The notes: generated by a model not told the origin, from the sequence alone. Counted from the first letter of the stretch, positions 7,426 through 60,092 are shown. The stretch: DNA of 64,000 bases from Minisyncoccota bacterium (GCA_018062445.1 JAGOSG010000001.1:122426-186425), one strand, 5' to 3'. Translations and numbers: made by a program.

Positions 7426-9357
7426 ATGTTCATCGTCCGTGTCATGCCCATAGCACGAGGGGTTTTTCGGGATCACCTAACATTCTTTTCTCGTGACGCT
7501 ATACCTGCAGGCATGATAGTAACTGTCTCCGTTCGTAATAGATCACTCCCTGCACTTGTTATTGAGAGTCGAGACGCGCGTGAAGAAAAACTCGATCTTC
7601 GTAGTGCTGATTTTTCATTAAAGAAAATCTCACCAAAAACAAAACCGAAACGCATTGTCACGAGTGCATTTGTTGCGGCGGTGAAAGATGCGGCGCTCTG
7701 GCATGGGGTACATGAGAGCGTTATGTTTGCAACGCTTACATCACAAGTAATTTTGACCGCTTCCAATAAACTCGAAGCCGTTCTTGAGCCAACAGCCGAG
7801 CTTAATCTCGAAACCGAGCCTGTCGTGCGCGCAGATCTTTTGGTCTTGCAAGCTGAAAAAGAAGAACGTGTTCGAACTTATAGAAATCTTGCTCGAGAAT
7901 CATTTGCTCGCGGTGAATCGGTCATGATTATAGTACCTACGGTTATTGAGGCAGAACAGATGGAAGAAAATTTGAAGCGTGGAATTGAAGACCATGTACT
8001 TCTACTTACCAGTGAAGTAAGTAAGAAAAAAATAATTGAAGCGTGGAATCGATGCAGTACCGACACAAAACCAGTGCTCATCATTGGAACTGCCTTCGCA
8101 CTTTCTGCACCACGCGTGAACATTGGCACAATAGTTGTTGAACGTGAAAGTGCGCGTGGATACCGAGGATTTTCCAGGCCTCATGTAGATGTACGCAGAT
8201 GCGCGGAATCCCTCTGCAGAAGAATGGGTGCGAGACTCATACTTGCAGATTTTCCGCTACGCATAGAAACACGCTATCGAGTAGATGCACATGAAATGGA
8301 CGAGCTAGCGAGGTCCCAAGTAAGACCAAGCGGAACTGCCGAGATATCAATTGTCGACACGAGAAAAAAAGAAATACCATTAGAGCAAACATCGAAAAAA
8401 GTTAGACGGGTCTTTACTGCACTCACTGAGGAAACAAAAGAAAAGATACATCGCGAAATACTTCGCGGTGGTCGTGCAATTGTTTTTGCAGCACGGCGTG
8501 GTATTGCCCCTCTCACTGTATGCAATGATTGTGGCACTCCAGTAACTGACCCTCACACTGGCGTACCAATGGTTCTCCATAAAACTGCCGATGGTAATCA
8601 ATTCATGTCACACCGAAGCGGTGCGACATTACCATCAGAAACACCTTGTAAAACATGCAAAGGGTGGAATTTGGTGACCTTAGGTATTGGAGTTGAGCGA
8701 GTGGCAGATGAGTTAGCGAAAGCATTCCCTGATTCCCCACTTATCACATTTACAAAAGATAGTGCGCCCACACATCGCGCAGCAAAAAAACTCTCGGAAG
8801 AATTTTTCTCTACCGCAGGGACAATACTCGTTGGTACTGAGCGAATGCTTCCATATCTAAAAAAGCCAGTAGAAATTGTGGCCGTGGCTTCGCTTGACAG
8901 CATGCTCTCTATTACCGCATGGCGCGCACACGAACACACTCTTTCTATTCTGTTCTATCTTCAAGAACATGCCGAGTTAGAGTTTATTGTAGAAACACGA
9001 AAACCAGACAGTGAAGTAATGAAAACTTTTGCCTCTGGAAATCCTGCGGATTTTTACCGTGGAGACATTAGGGAACGCGAACAATATGGATATCCTCCGT
9101 TCACTACCTTTATAGGGCTTCTATGGAAAGGAACAAAAGTAAGTGTAGAAAAAACTAGTCTTGCTATAACAGAAATATTTTCCGACATTGACTTAGTTGG
9201 ACCCCTTCCTCCTATAGCAGTTGGGAAAAGTGAGTGGAGTGCCCGCGCAGTCATACGTATACCACGGCGCGAATGGCCAAATATCACGCTCACCGAGCGT
9301 ATCCGCGCATTACCTCCTAATATAGAGATAACCGTAGATCCTGATGAGATAGTCTGA
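7426..9357 (+). CDS. priA: primosomal protein N-prime (PriA)-like replication restart protein
   Basis: 643 aa; cysteine cluster CNDCGTPV...CKTCKG typical of the PriA zinc-binding insert; N-terminal 3-prime-DNA-binding-like region. Helicase motifs look degenerate. Confidence 0.6.
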   Translation: MFIVRVMPIARGVFRDHLTFFSRDAIPAGMIVTVSVRNRSLPALVIESRDAREEKLDLRSADFSLKKISPKTKPKRIVTSAFVAAVKDAALWHGVHESVMFATLTSQVILTASNKLEAVLEPTAELNLETEPVVRADLLVLQAEKEERVRTYRNLARESFARGESVMIIVPTVIEAEQMEENLKRGIEDHVLLLTSEVSKKKIIEAWNRCSTDTKPVLIIGTAFALSAPRVNIGTIVVERESARGYRGFSRPHVDVRRCAESLCRRMGARLILADFPLRIETRYRVDAHEMDELARSQVRPSGTAEISIVDTRKKEIPLEQTSKKVRRVFTALTEETKEKIHREILRGGRAIVFAARRGIAPLTVCNDCGTPVTDPHTGVPMVLHKTADGNQFMSHRSGATLPSETPCKTCKGWNLVTLGIGVERVADELAKAFPDSPLITFTKDSAPTHRAAKKLSEEFFSTAGTILVGTERMLPYLKKPVEIVAVASLDSMLSITAWRAHEHTLSILFYLQEHAELEFIVETRKPDSEVMKTFASGNPADFYRGDIREREQYGYPPFTTFIGLLWKGTKVSVEKTSLAITEIFSDIDLVGPLPPIAVGKSEWSARAVIRIPRREWPNITLTERIRALPPNIEITVDPDEIV

Positions 9358-9447
9358 GGAAGCTGCCAGCTGTCAGGTTTCAGCTGTTAGCTTTTTGGAC
9401 TTTGAATTTTAAGCTGGAAGCTATAAGCTAGAAGCTGAAAGCTAATA
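9358..9447. repeat. dispersed short-repeat family, copy R5 (GGAAGCTGCCAGCTGTCAGGTTTCAGCTGTTAGC...AAGCTGGAAGCTATAAGCTAGAAGCTGAAAGC)
   Basis: Seen directly, between priA and def. Confidence 0.65.
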
Positions 9448-9450
9448 TAT

Positions 9451-9996
9451 ATGATTGACCCGATAGTTATCAAAGGAGCAAAAATCCTTAAACAAAAAAT
9501 GAAAGAGGTTCCAAAAAGTCTTTTTGGAACAGCGGAACTCCGAGATATTTTGCACCGCATGTCTCGCTCGCTTCGAAGTACTTCACATGGCGTTGCAATA
9601 GCTGCAAATCAAATAGGTATTCCCTATCGTATATTCGTCGTACGAGGATTTGTTCTTGAAAGCAAAGACAGAAACGATATCGCCCTCAAACCAGATGATG
9701 ACGCCGACTATGCATTCATTAATCCTAAAATAGTAAAAATTTCGAGGAAAAAAGAACTCCTTGATGAGGCATGTCTTTCAGTACCAGGGTTTCATGGCAC
9801 CATAAAGCGCTCTCTTCAAGCAACGGTGCGTGCATATGATATTGAGGGTATTCGCTTTGAACGAGGTGGCAGTGGGCTACTTGCGCAAATATTCCAGCAT
9901 GAGACAGATCATCTTGAAGGAATCCTCTATGTAGATAAAGCAGTGGAGGTGCTAAAAGCAAAAGAAGAAAGCGAGCTAGAAAAAGAAGAAAAATAG
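9451..9996 (+). CDS. def: peptide deformylase
   Basis: GVAIAANQIG, EACLSVPG and QHETDHLEG motifs. Confidence 0.85.
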   Translation: MIDPIVIKGAKILKQKMKEVPKSLFGTAELRDILHRMSRSLRSTSHGVAIAANQIGIPYRIFVVRGFVLESKDRNDIALKPDDDADYAFINPKIVKISRKKELLDEACLSVPGFHGTIKRSLQATVRAYDIEGIRFERGGSGLLAQIFQHETDHLEGILYVDKAVEVLKAKEESELEKEEK

Positions 9997-10023
9997 AAAC
10001 ACCGCATCAATACAATTAATTGC

Positions 10024-10887
10024 ATGGCACAGAAAAGTAAATTACGAATAGTATTTTTTGGAACTCCCTCTTTTTCAACATTTGTACTTAATGAACTTGA
10101 GAGTGCTGGAATACTCCCTGCACTCATTGTGACTGTTCCAGATAAACCAGCCGATAGAGGACTCCTTATGAAAGCGTCCCCAGTAAAAGTGTGGGGCGAA
10201 GAAAGAAGCATTGATGTGCTTCAACCTGAACGTTTAGATTTTTCAGATCCTGCCGCGGACATTATTTTAAACAGTGAGTGGGACATATTTATTGTTGCGG
10301 GATATGGAAAACTCCTTCCATCTGCACTTCTCGCGATTCCAAAGTATGGAACCTTAAACGTGCATCCATCACTATTGCCAAAGTTTCGTGGCCCGTCCCC
10401 TATTGAAAGCCAAATACTGACTGACGCAAAGGAAATAGGTGTGTCCATTATTCTTCTTGATGAAGAAACCGACCACGGCCCAATACTTGCACAAGCTTCT
10501 ATTACCCCAGAACCATGGCCGTTTAGGAGAAACATGGTTGAAGATTTGCTGTGGCACGAAGGTGGAAAGCTTCTTGCGGAATCTATTCCACTCGTTGTCG
10601 ACGGTTCACTCAAGGCAGAGGCACAAAACCATACAGAAGCTACCTTCACTCCTAAACTAAAAAAAGAAGATGGACTCATTGACCTCACTGGTGATGCCTA
10701 CCAAAACTACCTTAAGTTCTGCGCATACGAAGGTTGGCCAGGCACATATTTTTTTGTGACACGCAATGGAAAAGAAGCACGGATAAAAATTATAGATGCA
10801 AAATATGAAGCTGGTGCATTCACACCCACTCGCATCATCCCTGAAGGAAAAAAAGAAATGGACTACGCAGACTTTCTACGTTCATAA
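10024..10887 (+). CDS. fmt: methionyl-tRNA formyltransferase
   Basis: IVFFGTPSFS...LNVHPSLLPKFRGPSPIESQIL formyltransferase core. Adjacent to def, the classical def-fmt pair. Confidence 0.85.
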   Translation: MAQKSKLRIVFFGTPSFSTFVLNELESAGILPALIVTVPDKPADRGLLMKASPVKVWGEERSIDVLQPERLDFSDPAADIILNSEWDIFIVAGYGKLLPSALLAIPKYGTLNVHPSLLPKFRGPSPIESQILTDAKEIGVSIILLDEETDHGPILAQASITPEPWPFRRNMVEDLLWHEGGKLLAESIPLVVDGSLKAEAQNHTEATFTPKLKKEDGLIDLTGDAYQNYLKFCAYEGWPGTYFFVTRNGKEARIKIIDAKYEAGAFTPTRIIPEGKKEMDYADFLRS

Positions 10888-10922
10888 TTTCAGCTACCTT
10901 TCATGTTCTGAAACTAAAACCC

Positions 10923-10964
10923 CTGTATAGTATAATTTAACGACCGTTAAATTATACTATACAG
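10923..10964. repeat. 42-bp hairpin palindrome CTGTATAGTATAATTTAACG-AC-CGTTAAATTATACTATACAG (copy 1 of 3); likely bidirectional terminator between convergent fmt and minus-strand small ORFs
   Basis: Perfect 20-bp arms with a 2-nt centre; followed by ACTTTTTT on the + strand. Confidence 0.6.
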
Positions 10965-11130
10965 ACTTTTTTCGATGTTTACCGCCTTGAGGATGATAGG
11001 AGCTTCCTTGGCGTCGTACCAATGCTATGAAAAGCGTGGCTATTTTGTCTGCAACTTCTGGTTCAAGGCTTGGATCAAATGGATTGAGCGTAGTTGGACT
11101 GAGTACTTCCTCTTTCTTTCCCTCTCCCAT
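10957..11130 (-). CDS. hypothetical small protein (about 57 aa, MGEGKKEEVLSPTTLNPFDPSLEPEVADKIATLF...), not in ORF track
   Basis: Hand translation of the reverse strand; stop codon lies inside the palindrome. Coordinates approximate. Confidence 0.3.
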   Translation of the reverse strand: MGEGKKEEVLSPTTLNPFDPSLEPEVADKIATLFIALVRRQGSSYHPQGGKHRKKSV

Positions 11131-11144
11131 ATTTTTGTTATATA

Positions 11145-11312
11145 AAAATCAAACTACTTGTCTGTGATCAAGATTTCAAATTCTGTTGCACTCACCTCAT
11201 GTATTCGTGCTTTTTGACCTGGATGGAGGTGTAATCTTTTTTTAATTTCTACAGCCTTGTCGGCCGTATCAGTCGTGATGTAGTGCCATTCTGTACTTGC
11301 GGGATTTCCTTC
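11145..11312 (-). CDS. hypothetical small protein (about 55 aa, MSNEGNPASTEWHYITTDTADKAVEIKKRLHLHPGQKARIHEV...), not in ORF track
   Basis: Hand translation of the reverse strand. Coordinates approximate. Confidence 0.3.
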
Positions 11313-11399
11313 GTTAGACATATTTTGTAGTGTTAGCCTTTAATAAAATATTATACCTTGACTAAGATGAGTGTCAAACAGTCAGTTTTAATATATATC

Positions 11400-12725
11400 T
11401 TAGCTAAGATATTCTCTAGTGAGATTTCGAATACCATTTTCTGTCACCAACACATCATCCTCTATGCGCACTCCACCGTAAGGCGCGAGGCGGTCAATAA
11501 GCTCCCAGTTGAAGTGTTTTGCAGTATCACCGCTTCTATGTGGACGAAGCAACATTTCAATGAAATACACACCTGGCTCTATGGTAAACACCTGCCCTAC
11601 TTCCACAACTCCCTTCGTTCGCAAATTTTTCGTATCTGGCGTATCTTTTGAATCTCTCTTTACTCCCCCAACATCATGCACTTGGAGTCCGAGCATATGT
11701 CCTACACCATGCGGAAAAAAGACTTTAGTTAGCCCGAGTTCGGAAGCTTCTTTCCCGTCAATTTTAAAAATACCGAACGAAAAAAGTAAGTCTCCAATTT
11801 TGAGGTGTGTTTCTTTTTGTAAGTCAGCAAAAGAAAGTCCTGGTTTTACGAGACCGCAAAGTTCCTGTTGTATTTTTTCAACTCCAGCAAGAAGTTCAAC
11901 AAAAAGAGGGTCGGCATCGGGTGCCACATATGTGCGCGTTATGTCTGATGCATAACCCAGATATCTTGCACCTGCATCCAGTAAAAGCGACTTGCCACTT
12001 TTTGGTTCTTTTCGTTTTCCTTGGTAGTGGAGAATTGAACCTTTTTCATTAAGAGCCACAATAGTTTCATAGGGCAACTCATACTCCACACCTCCCACTG
12101 CTTTCATATACGCCTGATGAATTTCAAGCTCTGATGCACCACCAAGAAATACCTCATGAGCACTCTTGTGTCCCTCCGACGCAATCCTATTCGCCTCGCT
12201 AATACAAGCAATCTCATATGGGGTTTTATAGCTCCTCTCCGTATCCAAGCGAGCAATAAGTTCGTCTGGGTTTATCGCTTTTTCATCAACCCCGTGCGCC
12301 TTCGCTTCAGCTGGATTATCCCCCATATACAGAAAACTTTTTATGTTCGATTTCGTAAGTCGAACATTTAGTTCTTTCCATGCGGAGTCAGGAGAAAATA
12401 CTTCAATGAACTCGAAATCGGAAAGCCAAAAAGGACTCCCAAGAGAAGCTTGCTCATGCCAATAATCATCAGGCTTAACACGAACCAAAAGAGGTTTAGT
12501 CCCTTTTTGAATTAAAAGAAAACTACCTGCTTCATTTAAAGGTGCGAAGTGTGCAAAATGCGGGTACGCACGAAACGGCGCATCTTGGTCATCGGCATAG
12601 TATCGAAGCGGAGTGCCGGAATAAATAATAAGCGCATCAAATCCTGAAACAGAAAGAATATCTAACACCTTTTGTTTTTGCTCAGTAATGTGAGCAGAAT
12701 AGAGAGAAAGAATCTCGTCTTTCAT
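11400..12725 (-). CDS. pepP: Xaa-Pro aminopeptidase (M24B family)
   Basis: HGVGHMLGLQVHDVGG metal-binding signature plus a creatinase-like N-domain; 441 aa. Confidence 0.8.
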   Translation of the reverse strand: MKDEILSLYSAHITEQKQKVLDILSVSGFDALIIYSGTPLRYYADDQDAPFRAYPHFAHFAPLNEAGSFLLIQKGTKPLLVRVKPDDYWHEQASLGSPFWLSDFEFIEVFSPDSAWKELNVRLTKSNIKSFLYMGDNPAEAKAHGVDEKAINPDELIARLDTERSYKTPYEIACISEANRIASEGHKSAHEVFLGGASELEIHQAYMKAVGGVEYELPYETIVALNEKGSILHYQGKRKEPKSGKSLLLDAGARYLGYASDITRTYVAPDADPLFVELLAGVEKIQQELCGLVKPGLSFADLQKETHLKIGDLLFSFGIFKIDGKEASELGLTKVFFPHGVGHMLGLQVHDVGGVKRDSKDTPDTKNLRTKGVVEVGQVFTIEPGVYFIEMLLRPHRSGDTAKHFNWELIDRLAPYGGVRIEDDVLVTENGIRNLTREYLS

Positions 12726-17975: not shown

Positions 17976-19124
17976 TTACTGAGATTTATAAGAAGCAACG
18001 ACCAAATTGATTACACTAGTCGGTATGGTCTCTCTCCCTTCAAACCAGCCCCGAGCACGTTGAACGTCTTCCTTTGAAAGGGTTTTTTGAAGCTCATCAA
18101 AGAAGTTACTGGCTTTCCCTGCATGAATATCAGTAAGAATTTTTTCTACACTAGTACCAGCGCGTGACTCCTGCAGCATGCCATCAACCGCAAGCATCGA
18201 AAGTGGGGCGAGCACGTAATGTCCATACTGATAATCGAGGTTCGGAGAACCCGGCGCAACAATCACACTTTGCCTAATTTTCTCAAAGGCTTTTTGATTA
18301 TTAAAAGGCGCTTCTTTTATAAGTGAAAAGTTTTGAGTTCTAAGCGCCGTATGAACACCATAGAGATACACAATACGTCCTGATCGCTCTGCAGAAGTAG
18401 TAAATGCTGTTTCTGCCCAAGTAGCCTCAACCTCCTGCCAATCTTCTTCTGTAAAGGGCGACTGTAACTTTTGATAAGGTAGTGCGCCATTCTGATGCCT
18501 GTTGTAAAGGTGCATTACTGCGTGAATGAAGAGTTCCTCTCCGCGAAGACTATCTGATGTGCGCACGAAAGCACTAACTCTTGCGCTTGGGTCTGGATAC
18601 ACATGTGTAGCATCTTCGTCTGCATTTCCAGCAAGGCCTGCAGTAATAAGAACCACATGCGGAACCCGTTGTTCTTTAGGAATATCATTAAACAATTTCC
18701 CTGTGCGATTGAATGCATTTTCAATAATGGCAACATACCGTTGTATCGAATTTTCTGTTGTGGTTACGGGATATAAAATATCTACCCTATATATGCTGTG
18801 TTTCGGCTGAATACTCTGTAGTGTGAATGCATCGGAGCGAATAAGAACGCCCGTCAAGTTTGTCTCAAATTTCGCCCATCCAACGCCAGTCTCTATGGCA
18901 CCAACAGCTTCCCAACCTTGTGGCACACACACAGGTCGGTTTTTGTGGTCAAAACTTTTGAGTATGTCGCCAGACCAGATGCGATACCCTTGTGAGCCTG
19001 CAATAGGTTTCAGATAATCAGGAACTTTGTAACATTCCCCTCTAAGAATAGGTATGAAATAAACAGTTACTGCCAATAATGCCGAGAGAGCAAGCACGCC
19101 GATGGCTATCAATACTTTCTTCAT
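17976..19124 (-). CDS. hypothetical secreted/membrane-anchored protein
   Basis: MKKVLIAIGVLALSALLAVTVYFIP N-terminal anchor; 382 aa; no family recognised. Confidence 0.45.
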   Translation of the reverse strand: MKKVLIAIGVLALSALLAVTVYFIPILRGECYKVPDYLKPIAGSQGYRIWSGDILKSFDHKNRPVCVPQGWEAVGAIETGVGWAKFETNLTGVLIRSDAFTLQSIQPKHSIYRVDILYPVTTTENSIQRYVAIIENAFNRTGKLFNDIPKEQRVPHVVLITAGLAGNADEDATHVYPDPSARVSAFVRTSDSLRGEELFIHAVMHLYNRHQNGALPYQKLQSPFTEEDWQEVEATWAETAFTTSAERSGRIVYLYGVHTALRTQNFSLIKEAPFNNQKAFEKIRQSVIVAPGSPNLDYQYGHYVLAPLSMLAVDGMLQESRAGTSVEKILTDIHAGKASNFFDELQKTLSKEDVQRARGWFEGRETIPTSVINLVVASYKSQ

Positions 19125-44597: not shown

Positions 44598-44921
44598 GTG
44601 GCTAAGAAATTATATTTCGGTGGCTTGTCTTACGACACCACTGATGACAGTTTAAAAGCAGCTTGTGACCAATTTGGCGCCGTAACATCTGCAAAGGTGA
44701 TCATGGACCGCGAAACAGGTCGCTCACGAGGTTTCGGTTTCGTCGAAATGTCTTCGGACGATGAGGCGATGGCAGTTATCTCAGGGCTTGATGGTAAAGA
44801 TGTTGATGGACGCACCGTTCGCGTTTCTGAGGCTCGTCCTCAGGAAGAGGGTGGTGGCAACCGTGGCGGTGGAAACCGTGGCGGAGGTTTTGGTGGCGGA
44901 GACCGCCGAAACAGCTGGTAA
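44598..44921 (+). CDS. RRM-domain RNA-binding protein with glycine/arginine-rich tail (GTG start)
   Basis: RNP-2 LYFGGL and RNP-1 RGFGFVEM; C-terminal GGNRGGG repeats. Confidence 0.75.
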   Translation: MAKKLYFGGLSYDTTDDSLKAACDQFGAVTSAKVIMDRETGRSRGFGFVEMSSDDEAMAVISGLDGKDVDGRTVRVSEARPQEEGGGNRGGGNRGGGFGGGDRRNSW

Positions 44922-44941: not shown

Positions 44942-44981
44942 CAAAAAAGACCTGAGCATTCCGAGCTCAGGTCTTTTTTAT
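44942..44981. terminator. intrinsic terminator AAAAAAGACCTGAGC-attccga-GCTCAGGTCTTTTTTATTG
   Basis: 9-bp stem plus a 6-T run. Confidence 0.7.
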
Positions 44982-45052: not shown

Positions 45053-45643
45053 CTAGTCGCCTTCAAATTTTTCCGCACCAGAACACCCTGGGAAGCCAAG
45101 GTTCTTTCCAGAATAAAATTCATTCACGAAATACGGTATATTCACATCAGCAACAAGGGTGCAAACATCAGCATTAGAAATACCAAGCTTTTCTATAAGA
45201 TTCTTAGTTGCACTTCTTCGCACTTCACCTATAGGCTCTTTAAGAATCACCACAATAAAAAATGTACCTTCGGGAGAATAAAAAATTTCATAGGTGGATT
45301 CAGCGCTAGTAGTCGCGACTTCTGAATTAGGAAACCACGATAAAAAAGAACTCGGTGGTGTGGTAGAGGCAACGCCAATATCTTTCGTAAAATCTCGAAC
45401 GAATATAGACCCATCATTACTGCTCGCTATTTCAAGAGTGTTTTGAGATGGCTTCCTTGTATTCCCTACAACTGGTGTGTTGCTACCCACTTGAGAATTA
45501 GTACCAGGAAGAGTGTTGATAGGTGAAGTGCCATTTGGTCGAGGGGTCGGCACTTGTGCAAGAAAATACAAAGTTCCCGTAAACCCTATGAGAGCGAGAG
45601 TTGCTACAGCGAGAACTAAGGTGAGTATGTTTTGTCGGTTCAT
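45053..45643 (-). CDS. hypothetical secreted protein with Thr/Pro-rich linker
   Basis: N-terminal anchor MNRQNILTLVLAVATLALIGF; low-complexity linker; C-terminal globular region. Confidence 0.45.
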   Translation of the reverse strand: MNRQNILTLVLAVATLALIGFTGTLYFLAQVPTPRPNGTSPINTLPGTNSQVGSNTPVVGNTRKPSQNTLEIASSNDGSIFVRDFTKDIGVASTTPPSSFLSWFPNSEVATTSAESTYEIFYSPEGTFFIVVILKEPIGEVRRSATKNLIEKLGISNADVCTLVADVNIPYFVNEFYSGKNLGFPGCSGAEKFEGD

Positions 45644-45657
45644 GTTTTTATTAAAAA

Positions 45658-46644
45658 TTAGAATATGCAGAGATGGCCTCGGACTGCTTCTATATCCCAG
45701 TGAGGCCCACCCCCAGACACCCCTGGACGCGGTCTCTCACGGGCATACTTATTTCCACAACTATCTCTATATACTTGTGCTTCCTGCGAACCCCATCGGA
45801 CCCATTGCCCACCATAGAGAGGAGTGAAAATATTTGGATTATTACTCTGAATGCAAGCATTAAGAGTTGGGTTAAGGCGAACATCCGCTTTGAAGCCGGA
45901 ACCATGAGCACCGCCACGGTTTCCATCGCTACCAATTGCTGCAGAAGTCACAGTAAATTGAGTTCCGCACAATCTGTGAAGTTGGATCAACTGATCGACA
46001 GTTTGCATGCGTATACCTGCAAGTGAGGCACCAGATGTACAGGGGACAGCGCCTCCACATACGCCCCCCTGTTCTAATGTGCGTATCGCTGCAGCACTGG
46101 TTCGGTACACACCTCCTACTGATGCCGTTGGAGAAGGTTGTCCCGGTCCTCCTCGTGTACCACCCGTCACTCGTGGACGAGGTGCTTGTGCACCAGGTGC
46201 ATCAGGAAACGCGCCAGACACAGGAGCAGAAATACAATCAATGTGAGTCCAGATGGTAATACTTTTCCCCGTCAACACCGAAAAAGTAATATTAACCAGA
46301 AGCCATGCGGTAAGCACAATACATAAGCCGACAAACACATTAATAAACACGCCGTGCGCTTTCTTTACTTGATCTGGCTTGCTTGCTGCGGTTACATACA
46401 GAATACCTGCATAAGCAAACATGAGGGTTGCAACAATAACAGAGAAGGCAACAGCGAAGTTAATGACATTGTTTGCAAGTTCGGAAAGATCACACGCCCT
46501 ACACTCTGCTCCCTCACATTGAGGAACTAATCCCCCACCGCTCCCACTTAAGAGTGCTGAAGGGTCTTGCTGAACTGCAGCAAATGCCACGAGTGGCATG
46601 AAAAATACTATCGGAAGAAGAAGTATCAGTATCTTTCTCATCAC
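45658..46644 (-). CDS. membrane protein with VirB2/TrbC-like N-terminal topology (signal peptide plus two TM helices) fused to a Gly/Pro-rich linker and a Cys-containing C-terminal domain
   Basis: Signal peptide, then NNVINFAVAFSVIVATLMFAYAGILYV / loop / VFINVFVGLCIVLTAWLLVNITFSVL; topology resemblance only. Confidence 0.4.
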   Translation of the reverse strand: MMRKILILLLPIVFFMPLVAFAAVQQDPSALLSGSGGGLVPQCEGAECRACDLSELANNVINFAVAFSVIVATLMFAYAGILYVTAASKPDQVKKAHGVFINVFVGLCIVLTAWLLVNITFSVLTGKSITIWTHIDCISAPVSGAFPDAPGAQAPRPRVTGGTRGGPGQPSPTASVGGVYRTSAAAIRTLEQGGVCGGAVPCTSGASLAGIRMQTVDQLIQLHRLCGTQFTVTSAAIGSDGNRGGAHGSGFKADVRLNPTLNACIQSNNPNIFTPLYGGQWVRWGSQEAQVYRDSCGNKYARERPRPGVSGGGPHWDIEAVRGHLCIF

Positions 46645-46768
46645 ACAATGAGTATACCCTTGAAAAAATCTCCTCGACCTCTATATATGGTTGTGTACGA
46701 GACCTCTCCACACCTCGAAGAACCACATATTGACTTTCCTCAGAGGAAGCACATGATTCAGTGAAGTA

Positions 46769-47284
46769 GTGCATGATTATTGGTTTTCTAAAAAGAAATT
46801 GAAACATATGGATCGAGATCCAAAACCATCTTTTACAAAAAAAGCCAAGGGAGTAGGACTCGCGTTCTTAGGAGCTCTTTCGCTTGGTGGCTTTGCGGGT
46901 GATGCGGGGGCGCAGACGCAAGGGCGTCCTCTAAGCCCAGCAGAGCGATCTACACGTGAATATCAGCGCTTCAGTGCGAATAACCAAGCGGCAGCTAGAC
47001 GATCACAAGAGGCAATAAGTAGGATGGCTAGGAGACAAGCAGTTTATTGCGAGCAACTTAGACAGCAAGTAGAAAGGGATGGTTATACTGCGACCCAAAG
47101 AAGAGTAGGCGGTTCGTCATTCGCTTCGTGCAATATACGGCAATAGATCGCAAAAGAAGCAGAGAGCCCAGCAAATAGAGCATGCAGAGAAGTTGAATTT
47201 GCGAAACTAAAGAAAGAGGAGGACGAACTTTTTAGGTACTGTGAGAGCGTGAACTTCGCAGGTGAGAGATGCCGTGGTTTATAG
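46769..47284 (+). pseudogene. small secreted Cys-containing protein, paralog of 47303..47728, interrupted by an in-frame TAG at 47144..47146
   Basis: After the TAG the same frame continues IAKEAESPANRACREVEFAKLKKEEDELFRYCESVNFAGERCRGL, which aligns with the paralog C-terminus AAESPADRARRQAQDAKRQKEEDELIRYCVSVNYVGERCSGM. Confidence 0.5.
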
Positions 47285-47302
47285 AACTTACAATAAACTA
47301 AA

Positions 47303-47728
47303 ATGGGATCAAGATACGAAGGCCGGCATGATACTCAAAAGAAACCTCGGGGTGCAGCATTGCTCGCAGCTATTACCCTCGGCTTTGCAGGTGATGCGGG
47401 GGCGCAAGATGCACCACGAAGATCTTGGGAATATGGAGATATGAGTCCTACAGATGCAGCATACTGCCGAAGAGCGGCAGAAACGGAAACTAGAGTGGCA
47501 AGAGAAGGTAGGCATCCCAATATGGGTAACTTGTGTAGTTTTTATGATTTACCTGCGGATTTACGTTCAAGAGATGAGGCGTTGTATGCCAGAGAAGCTG
47601 CAGCAGAGAGCCCAGCAGATAGAGCCCGAAGACAAGCTCAAGATGCGAAAAGGCAGAAAGAAGAGGATGAACTTATTAGGTACTGCGTAAGCGTGAACTA
47701 TGTAGGCGAGAGGTGCAGTGGTATGTAA
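47303..47728 (+). CDS. small secreted Cys-containing protein (paralog family; signal ..LGFAGDAGAQ)
   Basis: Shares signal-peptide and C-terminal EDEL(I/F)RYC.SVN..GERC motifs with the upstream gene. Confidence 0.5.
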   Translation: MGSRYEGRHDTQKKPRGAALLAAITLGFAGDAGAQDAPRRSWEYGDMSPTDAAYCRRAAETETRVAREGRHPNMGNLCSFYDLPADLRSRDEALYAREAAAESPADRARRQAQDAKRQKEEDELIRYCVSVNYVGERCSGM

Positions 47729-47858
47729 AACTTTAATTACTTACTGCTTCTAAGCTCCCTAGATTTTCTAAAGGTGATTTGATATATCATATCGCTCTAA
47801 CCTAGTGGGTTACAGAATATTCTGCACTCAATGAATACTCACAATCCTTGCTTGCTGT

Positions 47859-52720: not shown

Positions 52721-52755
52721 AAATAAAATCACTGCTGTGGCAGTGATTTTATTTG
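52721..52755. terminator. bidirectional terminator AAAATCACTGC-tgtg-GCAGTGATTTTATTTG
   Basis: 11-bp stem flanked by A- and T-runs, between convergent genes. Confidence 0.65.
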
Positions 52756-53861
52756 TTACCGCGTAGAGCTTCAAGACCCTTGTAAACACTCGCGGCCTGC
52801 GTATCTGTGGGAACGTGAACATCCGAAAGATTCTGTCCTGCAAAAAGAAACATTCCGCCTGCAATCGCAAGAAGAACAAGTCCCCCGCCAACCATTTCGA
52901 GATATTGGATACGAACCTGAATAAAAACCGCGAGGAATAAAAGAATGGCTATGATTGTCATGAGCGCGCCGATGATATACCACAGTGTGTACGTTGGTGA
53001 TGTAACGGCAACAGCCATAAACATTATTGCGCGGGAAGCAAAGCTCGGAGGCGTGACATAAGAAGGTGTTTCACCGGTCGACACACTCTCTACCTCAGAT
53101 GCAGTGACTACATTTGGCGTACTTGACGATGCGGGAGTCTCCGAAACTGTCTCGGCGCCGAGAATGCTAGAAGGTGTAGCAGGTGCATTCAACCCAAGAG
53201 TGTTTATTGGAACAGATGTCGCAAGTTCGTTTGCGGGTACATCACCAGAAGAAGGCGGTGAATTGGCAACGAGAGGCTTCACTTTTTCATCGAGAGGTCG
53301 AGAGAAGAACTGCACTACAAATGTCGCTTCTTTCCCTTGGTACATGCCCTGTGCCACCGCAATTCCAACTCGGGAGAATTGGGCTTTCATAATGTTTGCA
53401 CGGTGCGTTGGCGATTTCATCCATGCATCTTCAACGTCTTTTGAGTCAGTAAAGTCAACCGCAAGATTTTCTCCTGCATATGTGTAGTTATAGCCGAGAG
53501 CATCAAGCCAGTACCACGGTGTCTTGCCATCTGGTGTAACGTGCGAGAAATATCCCTTCGATGCCATATCGTTTGCTTTATTCTGCGCTGCTTGTGTAAG
53601 AACAGGATCCTCAGTGAGTGTAGGAATACCATTTTGAACACGATCGTTATTTGCAAGCGCCGTCAAAACTCCTGGTAATACCGCTGCGAGGAAATTCGTC
53701 CGTAAGAAAACAATCTTCGTCTGCACGAAATATCCTCCCCACAGCAGAATAACAATCGCTAAAATAGCAACAATTGATTTCTTACTAAAACATCCTGGCC
53801 GATAGGAATTCTCGGCACACGGAATGAAGAAGACTTTCAAACCATGGAGGAATCTATTCAT
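52749..53861 (-). CDS. CAP/SCP/PR-1 domain protein, membrane anchored, with Ser/Thr/Pro-rich region and C-terminal TM
   Basis: GYFSHVTPDGKTPWYWLDALGYNYTYAGENLAVDF...WMKSPTHRANIM CAP-domain signature. Confidence 0.7.
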   Translation of the reverse strand: MNRFLHGLKVFFIPCAENSYRPGCFSKKSIVAILAIVILLWGGYFVQTKIVFLRTNFLAAVLPGVLTALANNDRVQNGIPTLTEDPVLTQAAQNKANDMASKGYFSHVTPDGKTPWYWLDALGYNYTYAGENLAVDFTDSKDVEDAWMKSPTHRANIMKAQFSRVGIAVAQGMYQGKEATFVVQFFSRPLDEKVKPLVANSPPSSGDVPANELATSVPINTLGLNAPATPSSILGAETVSETPASSSTPNVVTASEVESVSTGETPSYVTPPSFASRAIMFMAVAVTSPTYTLWYIIGALMTIIAILLFLAVFIQVRIQYLEMVGGGLVLLAIAGGMFLFAGQNLSDVHVPTDTQAASVYKGLEALRGNK

Positions 53862-53952: not shown

Positions 53953-56900
53953 TTAGTGCGCCGTACCACGCAAAATAGCGTTGACGTTCGCAATGGTTAC
54001 TGTGTCTACGTCAAACGATTGGAGGAGTGAGATAATCGATTGTATCTGCCCGTCCGTGAGCGTCTGCACGCCACTACCAGCTGTTTTAGGGGCCATTCCC
54101 TTATTGAGCTCTCTGCGAGTAAGAGAGCCGACATAGCCACTCTGTGGCGTGATGCCGTGACTAGCTTGGTATTTCTTTACCGCGGACTGCGTCAGAGATC
54201 CGAAGTATCCTGTCGGTGCGTTGACAACAAGGAACCCTTCCGCGATAAGAATTTTCTGAAGCTCCGTCACATCATCGCCCTTCGAGCCAAGGGTAAGATT
54301 CTGCGTGAAATTATACGCTTCGGCACCTAAGACCTGTCCTCCTGTAGTACCTCCGACAGCGCCACCAGTACTTGGAACTGCACCACCATTATTCGCCAAA
54401 GCTACTAATGGACCTCCTCCACCACCCCCTCCTCCTCCCGAAGAGGTTGATATCGCAGTCTGCGTGTAGGTAATGAAAGCCGTGAAGTGTTTCGTCCAAA
54501 TGACCAAATCGCTACCGACATCTATCTTACAATCACCACCCGCAACGAGTGCATCGCCTACTGTCTGGCTATCAGCACTACACACAGTAGTTATTTTCGT
54601 AAAGGCACCAGAACGCGACCAACCAGCGAGCTTACCAGCCTGACCAACAAAAACGAGTCGAACTCCCTTGTCGAAGGTCAGTGCCTTATTAACTGCACCA
54701 ACCTCTATTGCCACCTCTGATACACTCGTACCAGAATCTGGGGTGATGGTATATGCCATGGTAGCGGTTGGCGAAAGCAAGACTCCGTCCCATGTGTCGG
54801 GACCTGTAACAACAACACCAGCTGGAATGTTCACATTCACCGTGCCAACACTCGTCGTTGTCGTTGCTACGGTAGTCGCTGAAATGGTTGTCGAAGCCTG
54901 ACCTCCTGATGTGGTAGTCGTGTAGCGCAGTGTTGTCATCGCTGCATCTTTCCACCATGGAGAGAAGGAAATATCACCCAAAAGGTTATCTGTCGTTGGA
55001 CCATTTTCACTTCCCCAATAGTTGCTGGTTGCATTAAACGAACCAGTCATGTCAGATCGTATTTTCAATATAATCTTGTCCGTCGCCATGTTTGTGAACA
55101 CATTGTCGTTCATATTAAGTGTACTCCCGGTGAAATTAGGCTGACCAGCCCACGTTGTTGCGCCGACAGCAGAGTAGTATGAAGTATCCCAACTCTTATT
55201 CCCATCAAATGTATTGTCGGTAATGTTGACTGTCCAATTGCTTAGGAAGCTATCGAAGGTCACACCTGAATTTTCGAATTTATTATTCGTTACTGTTGCT
55301 GTGCGAGTAGCCGTGGCTCCATTGTTGTTAAAGTAGACACCAGAACCATACTTACTGATGTCATTATGAAGGCTACCATCAGGGTCCGTGTAGTCTGCTG
55401 CTGTAGGAAGTATGCTCAAAGGAATGGGCATGAAGCGATTGTATTGAGCGATGAAATTGTTGCCGAGTACTTCAATACCCTTATTCGGAGAGAGTTTGTT
55501 CATAATACCAAGACCCTGAATCGTCACATTATCTGAGAAGACAGTGATCAGGTTCTGAGTCGCCCAAGCCCCGTTTGCGGTCTCCTGCGTACTGTAGATG
55601 TTAGCAACTGTATCTACTGCGTTCGTAATAGGCTGCCCGCTTGCGTTCAAGCCTTGCAAGGTAATGTTATTTTTCGTGATTGCTAAATACCAACCAGTTT
55701 GTCCAGAAACGGATGTTGCATCATCTTTAATCAGATTGTAATCACCTGGTAGGATATTGACCGTACCACCCTCAACGATGCGCGCTATTCCCTCTGCTAT
55801 TGTTTTCTTTGGACTACGCGCAGTTCCGTCACCACTCGTGGAAACACTCCCGTCAATATAGACGATGGAGAGTACTGCAGGGGAACTTCTTTGATCCTCA
55901 ATAAATGCATTATTATTAGCGGCACTCATCGACAGAATGTTTGCATAAGCAGTAGTGGGAGCCATGGAGAGTATGGCGATGTCGTAAACGTTGGCTTGTG
56001 CGCCGAAGCCCCATGTATTGCCCGTCATCGTTATATCACCTCCCTCAAGCACCCAACCCTTCGTGCCATAGACGAAGTTGTTAGAAATGGTCCCCGTGGT
56101 AGGGCCCGTCAGATAGCCAGGTTGGCGCAAAGCATAAATAGTGTTTCCATCAATTTGGATGCCTGTAAGACCTCCAGTAAACACCATGGCGCGACTAACA
56201 TCGCCGTCGCCGATAACAAATTGTCCATGTATTGAGCTATTTTTTATCGATGTGTTACTGGCGCCGATATAGAGAAGATTTTGTAAGCCAGTTTTGTCGG
56301 TTTTTACAAGCTCAATATTCTGCAAAGTAAAACCACTAGCAAGAATCTTAAAGAAGTTTTCACCAACAGTGATATCACCTTGGATAAAAGTAGAACCAAC
56401 TCCTGCACCGGTGATGGTGAGATCAGTTTTAGTGATGTCTATCTTGCTGGTGAGTGTATAAGTACCTGTCGCTACAGTAATCGTGCCACCCGACGGAACC
56501 GCATCAACAGCAGCTTGAATGGTCGCAAACGGATGGGTCACAGAACCGTCATTTGAATCGTTACCACCTGGTGCGACATAGACACTTGAGAGAACAACAT
56601 GAACGATGTCGCCCGTACTACCGCTCGCAGCATTTACCCATGTGCCGTTTGCCCCTCCATCGTATGTCCAGCTCCAGTCACCTTCAGGTGCCGTAGAGTA
56701 ATCATAGGAACCTCCAGGAAAGTAGTTTTGGACCCAGAGAGAAGTCATTGAGCAAGAAATAGAATTGCAATCTTGTGCTGGGGCCGTGCCCGTTGTTCCC
56801 CAGACTCCTGCATCCCCGAAAGTACCAGTCAACACCCCGCGTGTGCCACCAGTCATAGTGCCAGTAACTATTTCAGGCAATGCTATGCCACTTTGTGGGC

Positions 56901-57225
56901 TTTTGCCGTTCGCACCACCGAATGTCGTGAATGTGCCGACATCGTCCGCCTGTGCACAATAAATGCCACTCTCCTCCCATATCTGGATATGCCTCGTGAA
57001 ATTGTCGAGAGCCCAATCACCAAAAAAACCTGAGTCCGGGTCGTTAGCAATTTGCTGAGTCACGTCTACGAGAAGTGACGCACCGACACCGCTAGTACAA
57101 GATGTCGCCGCATGCGCAACCGGTATGGAAACAAAAAACACTCCGGCAAAAAGCATGAGTAGTCCAATTACGGCAACCGAAACAAAGTTCTTTCTAATAA
57201 GATGAGTGGAAAGTGAAGAATACAT
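53953..57225 (-). CDS. giant (1090 aa) secreted cell-surface protein: right-handed beta-helix repeats, Gly-rich linker, C-terminal peptidoglycan-binding domain
   Basis: N-terminal signal/anchor; many NNTI/GTNN pectate-lyase-like beta-helix turns; GGGGGGGGG linker; C-terminus LTLGSKGDDVTELQKILIAEGFL...YFGSLTQSAVKKYQASHGI resembles PG_binding_1. Confidence 0.7.
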   Translation of the reverse strand: MYSSLSTHLIRKNFVSVAVIGLLMLFAGVFFVSIPVAHAATSCTSGVGASLLVDVTQQIANDPDSGFFGDWALDNFTRHIQIWEESGIYCAQADDVGTFTTFGGANGKSPQSGIALPEIVTGTMTGGTRGVLTGTFGDAGVWGTTGTAPAQDCNSISCSMTSLWVQNYFPGGSYDYSTAPEGDWSWTYDGGANGTWVNAASGSTGDIVHVVLSSVYVAPGGNDSNDGSVTHPFATIQAAVDAVPSGGTITVATGTYTLTSKIDITKTDLTITGAGVGSTFIQGDITVGENFFKILASGFTLQNIELVKTDKTGLQNLLYIGASNTSIKNSSIHGQFVIGDGDVSRAMVFTGGLTGIQIDGNTIYALRQPGYLTGPTTGTISNNFVYGTKGWVLEGGDITMTGNTWGFGAQANVYDIAILSMAPTTAYANILSMSAANNNAFIEDQRSSPAVLSIVYIDGSVSTSGDGTARSPKKTIAEGIARIVEGGTVNILPGDYNLIKDDATSVSGQTGWYLAITKNNITLQGLNASGQPITNAVDTVANIYSTQETANGAWATQNLITVFSDNVTIQGLGIMNKLSPNKGIEVLGNNFIAQYNRFMPIPLSILPTAADYTDPDGSLHNDISKYGSGVYFNNNGATATRTATVTNNKFENSGVTFDSFLSNWTVNITDNTFDGNKSWDTSYYSAVGATTWAGQPNFTGSTLNMNDNVFTNMATDKIILKIRSDMTGSFNATSNYWGSENGPTTDNLLGDISFSPWWKDAAMTTLRYTTTTSGGQASTTISATTVATTTTSVGTVNVNIPAGVVVTGPDTWDGVLLSPTATMAYTITPDSGTSVSEVAIEVGAVNKALTFDKGVRLVFVGQAGKLAGWSRSGAFTKITTVCSADSQTVGDALVAGGDCKIDVGSDLVIWTKHFTAFITYTQTAISTSSGGGGGGGGGPLVALANNGGAVPSTGGAVGGTTGGQVLGAEAYNFTQNLTLGSKGDDVTELQKILIAEGFLVVNAPTGYFGSLTQSAVKKYQASHGITPQSGYVGSLTRRELNKGMAPKTAGSGVQTLTDGQIQSIISLLQSFDVDTVTIANVNAILRGTAH

Positions 57226-59396: not shown

Positions 59397-60092
59397 ATGG
59401 AACAAAAACAAAATCTTTCTATCCCCATTGCTATCGTACTTGCTGGAGCCTTAATTGGTGGCGCACTCTTTTTTATTGGTCGCACTGACGCACCAACCAC
59501 AAACACGAATACAAACACACCCTCCGTTGCACAAAAAGATATTCCAGGCGTAACTTCCGCAGATCACATCATTGGTAGCATCGATGCACCAATAGTTATT
59601 GTTGAATACACCGACCTTGAGTGTCCATTTTGTAAACAGTTTGACGGCACCATGAAGCAAGTGGTCAAAGCATATGGCGGTAAGGTTGCATGGGTCGTCC
59701 GCAACTTCCCTCTTCAACAGCTCCACCCTAATGCACCAAAAATTGCTCTCGGAGCGGAGTGTGCGGCGGCGCTTGGTGGCAATGAAACATACTTCAAATT
59801 CCTTGATTCTGTATTCACTCAAGCACCAATCAATACTTTCTTCGATATTACAAAACTTACTGCAACTGCAGAGGGAGTTGGAGTTGATGCGAAGAAATTT
59901 AATGCCTGTGTTATCGCTGGAACCTATCAAGACAAAATAAGCAAAGAATTCAATGATGCCGTTGCTGCGGGAGGTCAAGGAACTCCCTTCTCGGTAGCCA
60001 TTACAAAGAATGGGAAGCAATACCCTATTCCTGGCTCTCAACCATTGGAACAACTCAAAACAATCATTGATGGAATCTTAGCGGGAAAGTAA
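59397..60092 (+). CDS. DsbA-family thiol:disulfide oxidoreductase
   Basis: N-terminal anchor, thioredoxin CPFC active site (YTDLECPFCKQF). Confidence 0.75.
   Translation: MEQKQNLSIPIAIVLAGALIGGALFFIGRTDAPTTNTNTNTPSVAQKDIPGVTSADHIIGSIDAPIVIVEYTDLECPFCKQFDGTMKQVVKAYGGKVAWVVRNFPLQQLHPNAPKIALGAECAAALGGNETYFKFLDSVFTQAPINTFFDITKLTATAEGVGVDAKKFNACVIAGTYQDKISKEFNDAVAAGGQGTPFSVAITKNGKQYPIPGSQPLEQLKTIIDGILAGK

Follow-up and report, generated by a model that had tools for sequence, protein, structure and literature searches.

In a 64,000-nucleotide (nt) stretch of DNA from a Minisyncoccota bacterium (GCA_018062445.1, JAGOSG010000001.1:122426-186425; hereafter the window, in whose coordinates positions are given), four open reading frames (ORFs) fill positions 45053 to 47728, encoding proteins of 196 amino acids (aa) and 328 aa on the minus strand and of 125 aa and 141 aa on the plus strand. 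The 328-aa protein joins the membrane module of a type IV secretion system (T4SS) pilin to a C-terminal globular domain, here called the head, and the best explanation of the locus, to which we assign a probability of about 0.5, is a surface cassette with a pilin-tethered, head-exchangeable peptidoglycan hydrolase. In the mechanism that we propose, the fusion would be exported by the Sec pathway and held by two transmembrane helices with both ends outside the cell, and the disulfide-stabilized extracytoplasmic head would hang on a flexible tether, a Gly/Pro linker some 45 residues long. The head would act on peptidoglycan as a metallopeptidase of the Hedgehog/DD-peptidase (LAS, M15-like) type, its metal being bound by the triad H247, D254, and H315; the pilin module would keep the head in the membrane, or a T4SS would display it on a pilus, and it would cut peptidoglycan there. 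Its target would be either the bacterium's own wall, in a VirB1-like role for passage of a pilus or channel, or the wall of the host cell to which these epibionts attach. Recombination in the linker would swap in M15_4 or lysozyme-like heads, and the 196-aa membrane protein encoded downstream would act as a head-independent partner of the pilin module.

The fusion gene (45658..46644, minus strand; 328 aa counted from GTG 46644) was delineated from a Pfam PF18895 match, hydropathy, an AlphaFold2 (AF2) model, and a motif census. The signal peptide (residues 1 to 23, cleavage after AFA) is followed by the pilin module (residues 24 to 137; 46234-46575), the Gly/Pro linker (residues 138 to 180; 46105-46233), which is the stretch of the gene richest in guanine plus cytosine (GC), and the head (residues 181 to 328; 45661-46104). 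Translation is likely to start at ATG 46641, the codon after GTG 46644, whereas the protein in the public record has 313 aa and begins at M16, within the signal peptide (46596-46644 region). The longer form is favored by the MKKK...-type N termini of homologues and by the sequence near 46641-46644, and a start at either codon restores a normal signal peptide. Public copies of these exact proteins are annotated as hypothetical; the 196-aa protein is KBC74_00990.

The N-terminal pilin module

The original prediction, made from the DNA alone, had read the N terminus as the signal-peptide, transmembrane, short-loop, transmembrane layout of VirB2/TrbC pilins, and this reading was borne out. PF18895 (T4SS_pilin) matches the fusion with 41.3 bits against a gathering cut-off of 26.6 (E=1.6e-10), aligning residues 53 to 118 with profile positions 5 to 69 of 71; the second family named in this context, PF04956 (TrbC/VirB2), does not match the window protein at E<=1, but it is matched by 14 of 144 proteins sharing the head. 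PF04956 also matches a classical 118-aa pilin from a Nomurabacteria array, L026 (32.3 bits against a cut-off of 27.9). Hydropathy gives three hydrophobic segments in the 328-aa protein (residues 1 to 27, about 56 to 88, and about 93 to 126), and the loop between the two transmembrane helices, SKPDQVKKAHG, is short and basic. The AF2 model agrees in forming a helical hairpin over residues 46 to 125, with helices 46 to 88 and 90 to 125 at predicted local distance difference test (pLDDT) values of 80 to 88, the full-length model having a pLDDT of 75. From the positive-inside rule, we infer that the segment containing C43, C48, and C51, together with everything past the second transmembrane helix (C137 onward), lies outside the cell; C51 and C137 are almost invariant among these extracytoplasmic cysteines beyond the head.

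PF18895 pilins are already known in Patescibacteria, for instance in "Ca. Southlakia epibionticum" and in the TM7x arrays. The fusion is like these pilins in hidden Markov model (HMM) membership and phylum, in its signal peptide, two hydrophobic helices, and short basic loop, and in that they often lie away from virB4 and occur as multiple divergent paralogues per genome (PMC12102498, PMC10633639). In contrast to canonical pilins, which have about 100 to 130 aa and no extra domain, the fusion adds 190 aa of linker plus globular head, and its gene, paired with a dedicated partner gene, is set among housekeeping genes rather than in an array or T4SS locus. Nor is it a small single-domain pilin of roughly 70 to 130 aa in its mature form, since its residues 138 to 328 are linker and globular domain; it is the only pilin-domain ORF in the window. 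VirB2-like pilins are widespread in Patescibacteria and often far from virB4 (about 40% of pilin-bearing genomes), VirB4 itself being found in 2,417 of 3,035 assemblies (PMC12102498), and in the only Patescibacteria species studied by genetics, epibiotic growth cannot proceed without the pilin array and the T4SS (PMC10633639).

In more distant Patescibacteria (L024, L025, L026, and L027), the arrays consist of one long protein (393 to 568 aa) followed by two or three short classical pilins; in the L026 array (9089-11466), the source of the 118-aa pilin, the pilin module is C-terminal in the long protein, and no VirB4 lies within 10 kb.

The head domain and its family

The linker comprises 43 residues, of which 9 are Gly and 8 are Pro, and is modeled by AF2 with low confidence. 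The head modeled alone (residues about 181 to 328) reaches a pLDDT of 88.6 and a predicted template-modeling score of 0.86, and it contains six cysteines; both the Gly/Pro-rich linker and the Cys-containing extracytoplasmic C-terminal domain had been anticipated correctly.

A profile of the head retrieves at least 2,497 clusters (50% identity) at E<=1e-3, and 1,461 at E<=1e-10, among 1.84 billion representatives. PF18895 is present in 90 of the best 144 representatives of this family and TrbC in the 14 mentioned above, and other domains found in this set include PG_binding_1 (5 proteins), PG_binding_3 (4), Peptidase_S8 (2), WXG100 (1), and eCIS_core (1). A local HMM places the pilin module in 119 of 170 head-bearing proteins. 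The family consensus reads CTSLxG...(helix)...C.C...TGGTExGH..G..SHxNGYKVD.R ... GNxYAxExxHWDI, and the number of the 170 domains in which its principal residues are conserved is, in consensus order, 147 (E), 161 (H), 167 (H), 157 (K), 170 (D), and 165 (E), followed in the C-terminal motif by 158 (H), 146 (W), and 156 (D). The window head keeps H247, K252, D254, E303, H315, W316, and D317, whereas a sister subclade lacks the equivalents of H315 and W316 and reads "LDL" instead.

Outside the candidate phyla radiation (CPR), small secreted proteins of Streptomyces misionensis, Coprinopsis cinerea (CC1G_05638), and Ceratobasidium also contain the head (P0122, P0160, and P0174). The occurrences in Streptomyces and basidiomycetes and on WXG100 and eCIS_core proteins suggest that the head is a widely shared, possibly antibacterial effector domain.

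Exchange of heads on a nearly constant pilin module

Paralogous cassettes carry, on the same pilin module, PF13539 M15_4 (CwlK-like) heads or PF18896/lysozyme-like heads, giving at least three annotated head types on this module, plus others. Positions 46159-46658, covering the pilin module, share 90.8% DNA identity over 500 bp with the M15_4 cassette of Parcubacteria bacterium Greene0714_7, and the identity ends abruptly in the linker, at about codon 162. The constancy of the pilin module and the identity break in the linker thus indicate that heads are exchanged by recombination at the Gly/Pro-coding, GC-rich linker, and the alignments document what is evidently a modular exchange with the pilin module held nearly constant. 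At the protein level, the hairpin is 95 to 98% identical among close relatives and the heads are 54 to 79% identical; this degree of conservation is unusual, exceeding what would be expected of a passive anchor, and the pilin module would accordingly be expected to dock on common machinery, either a T4SS or the partner protein.

At the miaA-AhpC locus, the head is of the HWD type in L004 and L028 and of the M15_4 type in L014 and L016, which suggests in situ head replacement at an orthologous position.

A recurrent cassette with a head-independent partner

The same set of genes, namely, one or more small secreted proteins, a pilin-head fusion, and a transmembrane-anchored partner of ~196 aa, recurs at several loci in several Paceibacteria genomes, in line with the earlier suggestion that the secreted or membrane-anchored neighbors belong with the fusion. 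The partner gene (45053..45643, minus strand) begins 14 nt past the end of the fusion gene, and its product has a transmembrane anchor (residues about 3 to 31), a linker rich in Thr, Pro, Ser, and Asn, and a highly conserved C-terminal domain with C161 and C187; it has no Pfam or PDB match. Partner homologues (38 to 62% identity) directly follow fusions with three kinds of head, HWD, lysozyme-like (P0019), and "LDL" (P0010), and the partner is found 3' of the fusion in 17/17 complete cassettes (L001 to L018), including the M15_4-headed L014 and L016; distant fusions (L028) lack it. The partner family consists of 38 clusters, and every named source is a member of Patescibacteria. Judged by this distribution, the partner is a head-independent companion of the pilin module, and its conservation suggests a specific complex. 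A tandem arrangement is seen in L017 (636-4501), where a pilin-lysozyme-like fusion with its partner is followed by a pilin-HWD-head fusion with its own.

The fusion and partner genes are probably cotranscribed. A terminator-like, bidirectional hairpin (44943..44979; 15-pair stem, with an A-run before and a T-run after it) sits where the RRM gene and the partner gene converge, is also kept in L008, and would end the fusion-partner transcription unit. On the other side, the intergenic region between the fusion gene and the first small gene (46645..46768) presumably holds the promoters of both, as judged from their divergent arrangement; it contains one sigma-70-like match (plus strand, 46730-46757), a count not above chance.

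Small secreted proteins adjoin most cassettes, sharing a signal-peptide region and having several unrelated mature types. The two in the window had been described as paralogues, and they are indeed weak ones (44% identity over 59 aa, E=5e-9), both with signal-peptide-like N termini. The first (46769..47146, plus strand, divergent from the fusion gene; 125 aa from GTG) is likely to start at ATG 46808 with MDRDPKPS..., a homologue in L010 beginning MDRDPK; its signal peptide ends in AGDAGAQ, and its mature part is rich in Arg, Ala, and Gln, contains two Cys, and resembles the small proteins of L012 (129 aa) and L015 (115 aa). The second (47303..47728, plus strand; 141 aa) combines a signal peptide with a four-Cys mature part of the "RRSWEYGDMSP..." type, and its orthologues lie upstream of HWD-head cassettes in L002/L008, L009, L010, and L011. 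Between the two, the frame of the 125-aa ORF runs on for 44 codons past its TAG (47144-47289), reading ...EEDELFRYCESVNFAGERCRGL*. This 132-nt segment (47158..47289, plus strand), left over from the 3' end of a gene for a small secreted protein, is a direct repeat of 47602-47733 (79% identity) and corresponds to the C-terminal tail of the 141-aa paralogue type, with 94% DNA identity to the end of the 138-aa gene of L008; it probably records a recombination event, as a scar or as a mosaic gene cut short.

Such mosaicism raises the alternative that the fusion is a polymorphic toxin-like effector, in which the pilin module would be a T4SS delivery or trafficking domain, the heads would be antibacterial toxins acting on the walls of hosts or competitors, and the small proteins or the partner would confer immunity. 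With polymorphic toxins (LXG/WXG100, Rhs, contact-dependent inhibition [CDI], and cargo of extracellular contractile injection systems [eCIS]), the fusion shares a constant N-terminal module joined to unrelated, recombining C-terminal heads at a sharp boundary, a head family found also on WXG100 (type VII secretion system [T7SS]) and eCIS_core N termini, and small, polymorphic, mosaic neighbor genes, with a recombination scar at 47158-47289. However, the gene directly downstream is invariant across HWD, M15_4, and lysozyme-like heads, where an immunity gene would be expected to covary with the head, and the types of small protein track the heads loosely, L015 pairing an HWD head with another kind of small protein and L012 carrying the type associated with M15_4; a role of the small proteins as head-specific immunity factors was rejected for this inconsistency. 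Moreover, the N-terminal module is not a soluble trafficking domain but a pilin integral to the membrane, its delivery would need extraction of two transmembrane helices from the membrane, and the cassettes are syntenic parts of the core genome. We regard a toxin-like effector as quite unlikely.

Base composition and inheritance of the locus

The locus had been described as a GC-richer block and as a possible horizontally acquired surface or secretion module; the first part of this description holds in a modest form, and the second is not supported. GC content from 45600 to 47700 is 0.473 against a window mean of 0.437 (z=1.95, top 2% of equal-sized windows), and it rises to 0.552 (z=3.1) at 46000-46260, but another part of the window deviates more: the block's tetranucleotide z is only 1.5, and the region from 53 to 57 kb exceeds the block in both GC and tetranucleotide distance. 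When split by codon position, the GC excess is confined to positions 1 and 2, GC at third codon positions (GC3) being at or below the mean of 64 window ORFs for all four genes (z, -0.4 to -1.6). Gly, Ala, Pro, and Arg make up 0.34 to 0.42 of the fusion and both small ORFs against a mean of 0.26, and the GC peak falls on the Gly/Pro-rich linker of the 328-aa protein; the 196-aa partner gene, whose product contains 24% of these residues, is not GC-rich (0.418). The excess thus follows from the abundance of Gly, Ala, Pro, and Arg in the proteins, and the local GC rise is an amino-acid-composition effect, not a signature of foreign DNA. The general lesson is that a local rise in GC can be wholly of this kind.

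Neither a flanking tRNA gene, an integrase, nor flanking repeats were found at the locus, the sole tRNA gene of the window lying 14 kb away. The flanking genes are housekeeping genes, encoding HisRS, a PurF-like amidotransferase, an ABC transporter, GtrA, a DedA/VTT protein, an RRM RNA-binding protein, an S41 peptidase, and methyltransferases. The neighborhood of ~20 kb is colinear in Greene0714_7, where the fusion protein is 87% identical and the cassette DNA is 88.7% identical over 1.9 kb. More distant fusions, P0046 and P0033 (32 to 39% identical) and P0006 (62%), all lie in one conserved neighborhood (ClpB ... miaA-AhpC-ParB-RelA-TopA-DprA-SerRS). This colinearity and the presence of distant fusions in a conserved core neighborhood imply that the family is old and vertically inherited in its lineage, and the comparisons establish the cassette as a chromosomal, vertically inherited element of Paceibacteria (CPR/Patescibacteria). 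A horizontally acquired genomic island, for which the modest GC rise alone speaks, was rejected as very improbable because GC3 is not raised, synteny in relatives extends over both locus and flanks, and distant orthologues are found in a core neighborhood; the tetranucleotide signal, below that of other parts of the window, and the missing mobility genes point the same way.

The RRM-domain protein encoded at 44598-44921 has an RGG/GNRGG-rich tail and a local GC content of 0.528, with the same amino-acid-composition cause. By chance, the sequence encoding this tail and the GNRGG-coding part of the fusion gene make up an inverted repeat: the arms (44855-44899 and 45896-45932) encode GNRGG-type Gly/Arg runs on opposite strands, and the repeat was dismissed as a coincidence of composition.

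Is the head a wall-active peptidase?

A LAS-like metallopeptidase is the most likely mechanism for the head, with the balance tipping slightly in its favor on motifs, weak fold matches, and context. The window head contains H247-x6-D254 and H315, a match at the level of motifs only, and across the family the triad is kept in 167/170 (H), 170/170 (D), and 158/170 (H) domains, the E of the E-x-x-H consensus being kept in 165/170. The pattern parallels that of M15 enzymes, in which SxHxxGx[AK]xD (H-x6-D) is followed downstream by [DE]xxH[FW]; these two motifs are hallmarks of VanX, VanY, and CwlK-type M15 enzymes. Like the LAS/M15 group (VanX, VanY, CwlK/PF13539, phage L-Ala-D-Glu endolysins, and the Hedgehog N-domain), the head combines this motif pattern and spacing with a helix-strand "TSG" element ahead of the motifs, and its motif residues lie on adjacent predicted β-strands (252 to 256 and 315 to 319 in the AF2 model). 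An hhalign comparison of 21 heads with the M15_4 heads of paralogous fusions gave E=1.6e-4 and a probability of 50%, aligning the helix, the "TSG" strand, and the H..G.xD segment. The top Foldseek match in BFVD is a Hedgehog-annotated Microviridae protein (E=3.8e-3, probability 0.99, template-modeling [TM] score 0.35 to 0.38), and five of the top nine, below the Hedgehog match, are M15/M15A, peptidase, or cell wall hydrolase entries. We infer that the head would cut peptidoglycan because bona fide M15_4 (CwlK-type) and lysozyme-like domains fill the same slot in paralogous cassettes and because the family is fused to peptidoglycan-binding domains.

A series of results weighs against a peptidoglycan hydrolase linked to pilus machinery. 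The head has no match in Pfam, NCBIfam, PHROGs, or PDB by phmmer and profile searches; among relatives searched against Pfam, 1 of 21 matches VanY (E=0.044) and 1 of 144 matches M15_4 (E=0.004). The hhalign probability falls to 8% when deeper alignments of the head family and M15_4 are compared, and to 1.9% (E=0.026) for 170 heads against 117 bona fide M15_4/CwlK sequences; formal assignment to M15 was dropped, since the signal obtained with shallow alignments vanished with deep ones. The BFVD matches have TM scores of 0.27 to 0.38, none at E<=1e-3, and Foldseek finds no match in PDB for either the whole model or the head alone (E>0.3, TM score <0.31; best E for the head, 0.35). The head also differs from LAS/M15 enzymes in about 50 extra β-hairpin residues between the motifs, in its six conserved Cys, in K for A in the motif, and in a family-specific conserved E...H pair. 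This pair, the E and H of TGGTExGH (147 and 161 of 170), is itself missing in the window head, which has Ile and Asp instead, and is deleted in its closest relatives; in addition, an 11-residue insertion separates E303 from H315. Given the missing pair and the insertion, the window head may be catalytically altered or inactive. As for the pilus, no VirB4-, VirD4-, VirB6-, VirB3-, or PrgI-like protein was found among the 40 larger ORFs scanned in the 64-kb window, so that the earlier observation on VirB4 and VirD4 stands. Since F-type pilins display their C terminus on the outside of the pilus, incorporation into a pilus of a pilin with a 190-aa extension would be sterically conceivable at low stoichiometry. 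Finally, the core-genome context is equally compatible with a plain housekeeping autolysin.

If the losses in TGGTExGH are taken as decisive, the head would be a noncatalytic adhesin or binding domain that has lost its catalytic residues and binds a cell wall ligand, close to the "orphan pilin-like adhesin" of the original prediction; the sister subclade without H315/W316 could be read in the same way. The set from H247 to D317 is nevertheless kept in the window head as well as in orthologues as little as about 60% identical to it, which argues for a maintained site. An adhesin is conceivable, but an enzyme head is the likelier reading, because bona fide M15_4 or lysozyme-like heads take this position in paralogous cassettes, and we consider an adhesin rather improbable.

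A second alternative accepts the enzyme and dispenses with the pilus: the fusion would be a housekeeping membrane-tethered autolysin, its hairpin a mere anchor without T4SS or pilus, and the heads the cell's own wall-remodeling set for growth and division. The deeply conserved, syntenic position in the core genome, the lack of T4SS genes in the window scan, and the occurrence of several paralogues per genome with complementary hydrolase types all fit this view. On the other hand, the hairpin is far more conserved than heads and linker, and its DNA identity of about 90% between paralogous cassettes would be unusual for a passive anchor; the module scores significantly in a pilin family that forms essential arrays in T4SS loci (PMC10633639, PMC12102498), and the conserved, head-independent partner points to a specific complex. 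We hold the autolysin, the likeliest of the alternatives, to be unlikely. A phage holin-endolysin, suggested by endolysin-like heads on a two-helix membrane segment, was rejected: the surroundings contain no phage genes, the module is recognized as a pilin, and the cassettes are syntenic and belong to the core genome.

Relation to wall-cleaving components of secretion systems

The pilin-tethered hydrolase that we favor would share with VirB1, PrgK, and TraG of pIP501 a role in local peptidoglycan cleavage alongside a T4SS. VirB1-type enzymes, however, have SLT or CHAP domains without sequence relationship to the head, and the fusion, unlike them, joins its hydrolase-like domain to the pilin itself and lies outside any T4SS operon. 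Most Patescibacteria genomes with VirB2 are without a recognizable VirB1 (PMC12102498). Together with the wide spread of VirB2-like pilins, often distant from virB4, and the need for the T4SS and pilin arrays in epibiotic growth (PMC10633639), this makes either target, own wall or host wall, an attractive one. In a bolder version, Patescibacteria would possess an "enzymatically armed" pilus or platform, whose interchangeable peptidoglycan-degrading heads drill the host wall, with recombination in the Gly/Pro linker as the source of head diversity, the partner aiding assembly, and the missing VirB1 role being filled; this version is speculative, and we think it improbable.

A literature search of incomplete coverage found no description of pilin-hydrolase fusions, the partner gene, head swapping, or the head family. 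If our reading is true, pilin modules with swappable wall-hydrolase-type heads, each accompanied by a conserved partner, would provide a concrete, testable link between the pilin family and the breaching of a wall, own or host. The head family is large, unannotated, and secreted, is common to Patescibacteria, Streptomyces, and basidiomycete fungi, and also occurs on T7SS- and eCIS-type toxin scaffolds, which makes it a candidate new class of wall-active enzyme.

Other features of the window

The most deviant part of the window in composition (GC up to 0.51, tetranucleotide z of 3.3) contains a 1,090-aa ORF at 53953-57225 with a C-terminal PG_binding_1 domain, and a secreted CAP-domain protein (52749-53861) adjoins it; both are wall- or surface-associated. 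Two large ORFs, at 7426-9357 (643 aa) and 17976-19124 (382 aa), have no Pfam match at E<=1e-3. Positions 59397-60092 encode a DsbA/thioredoxin-like protein, and the head, the partner, and the small secreted proteins carry conserved Cys pairs that would need extracytoplasmic disulfide formation.

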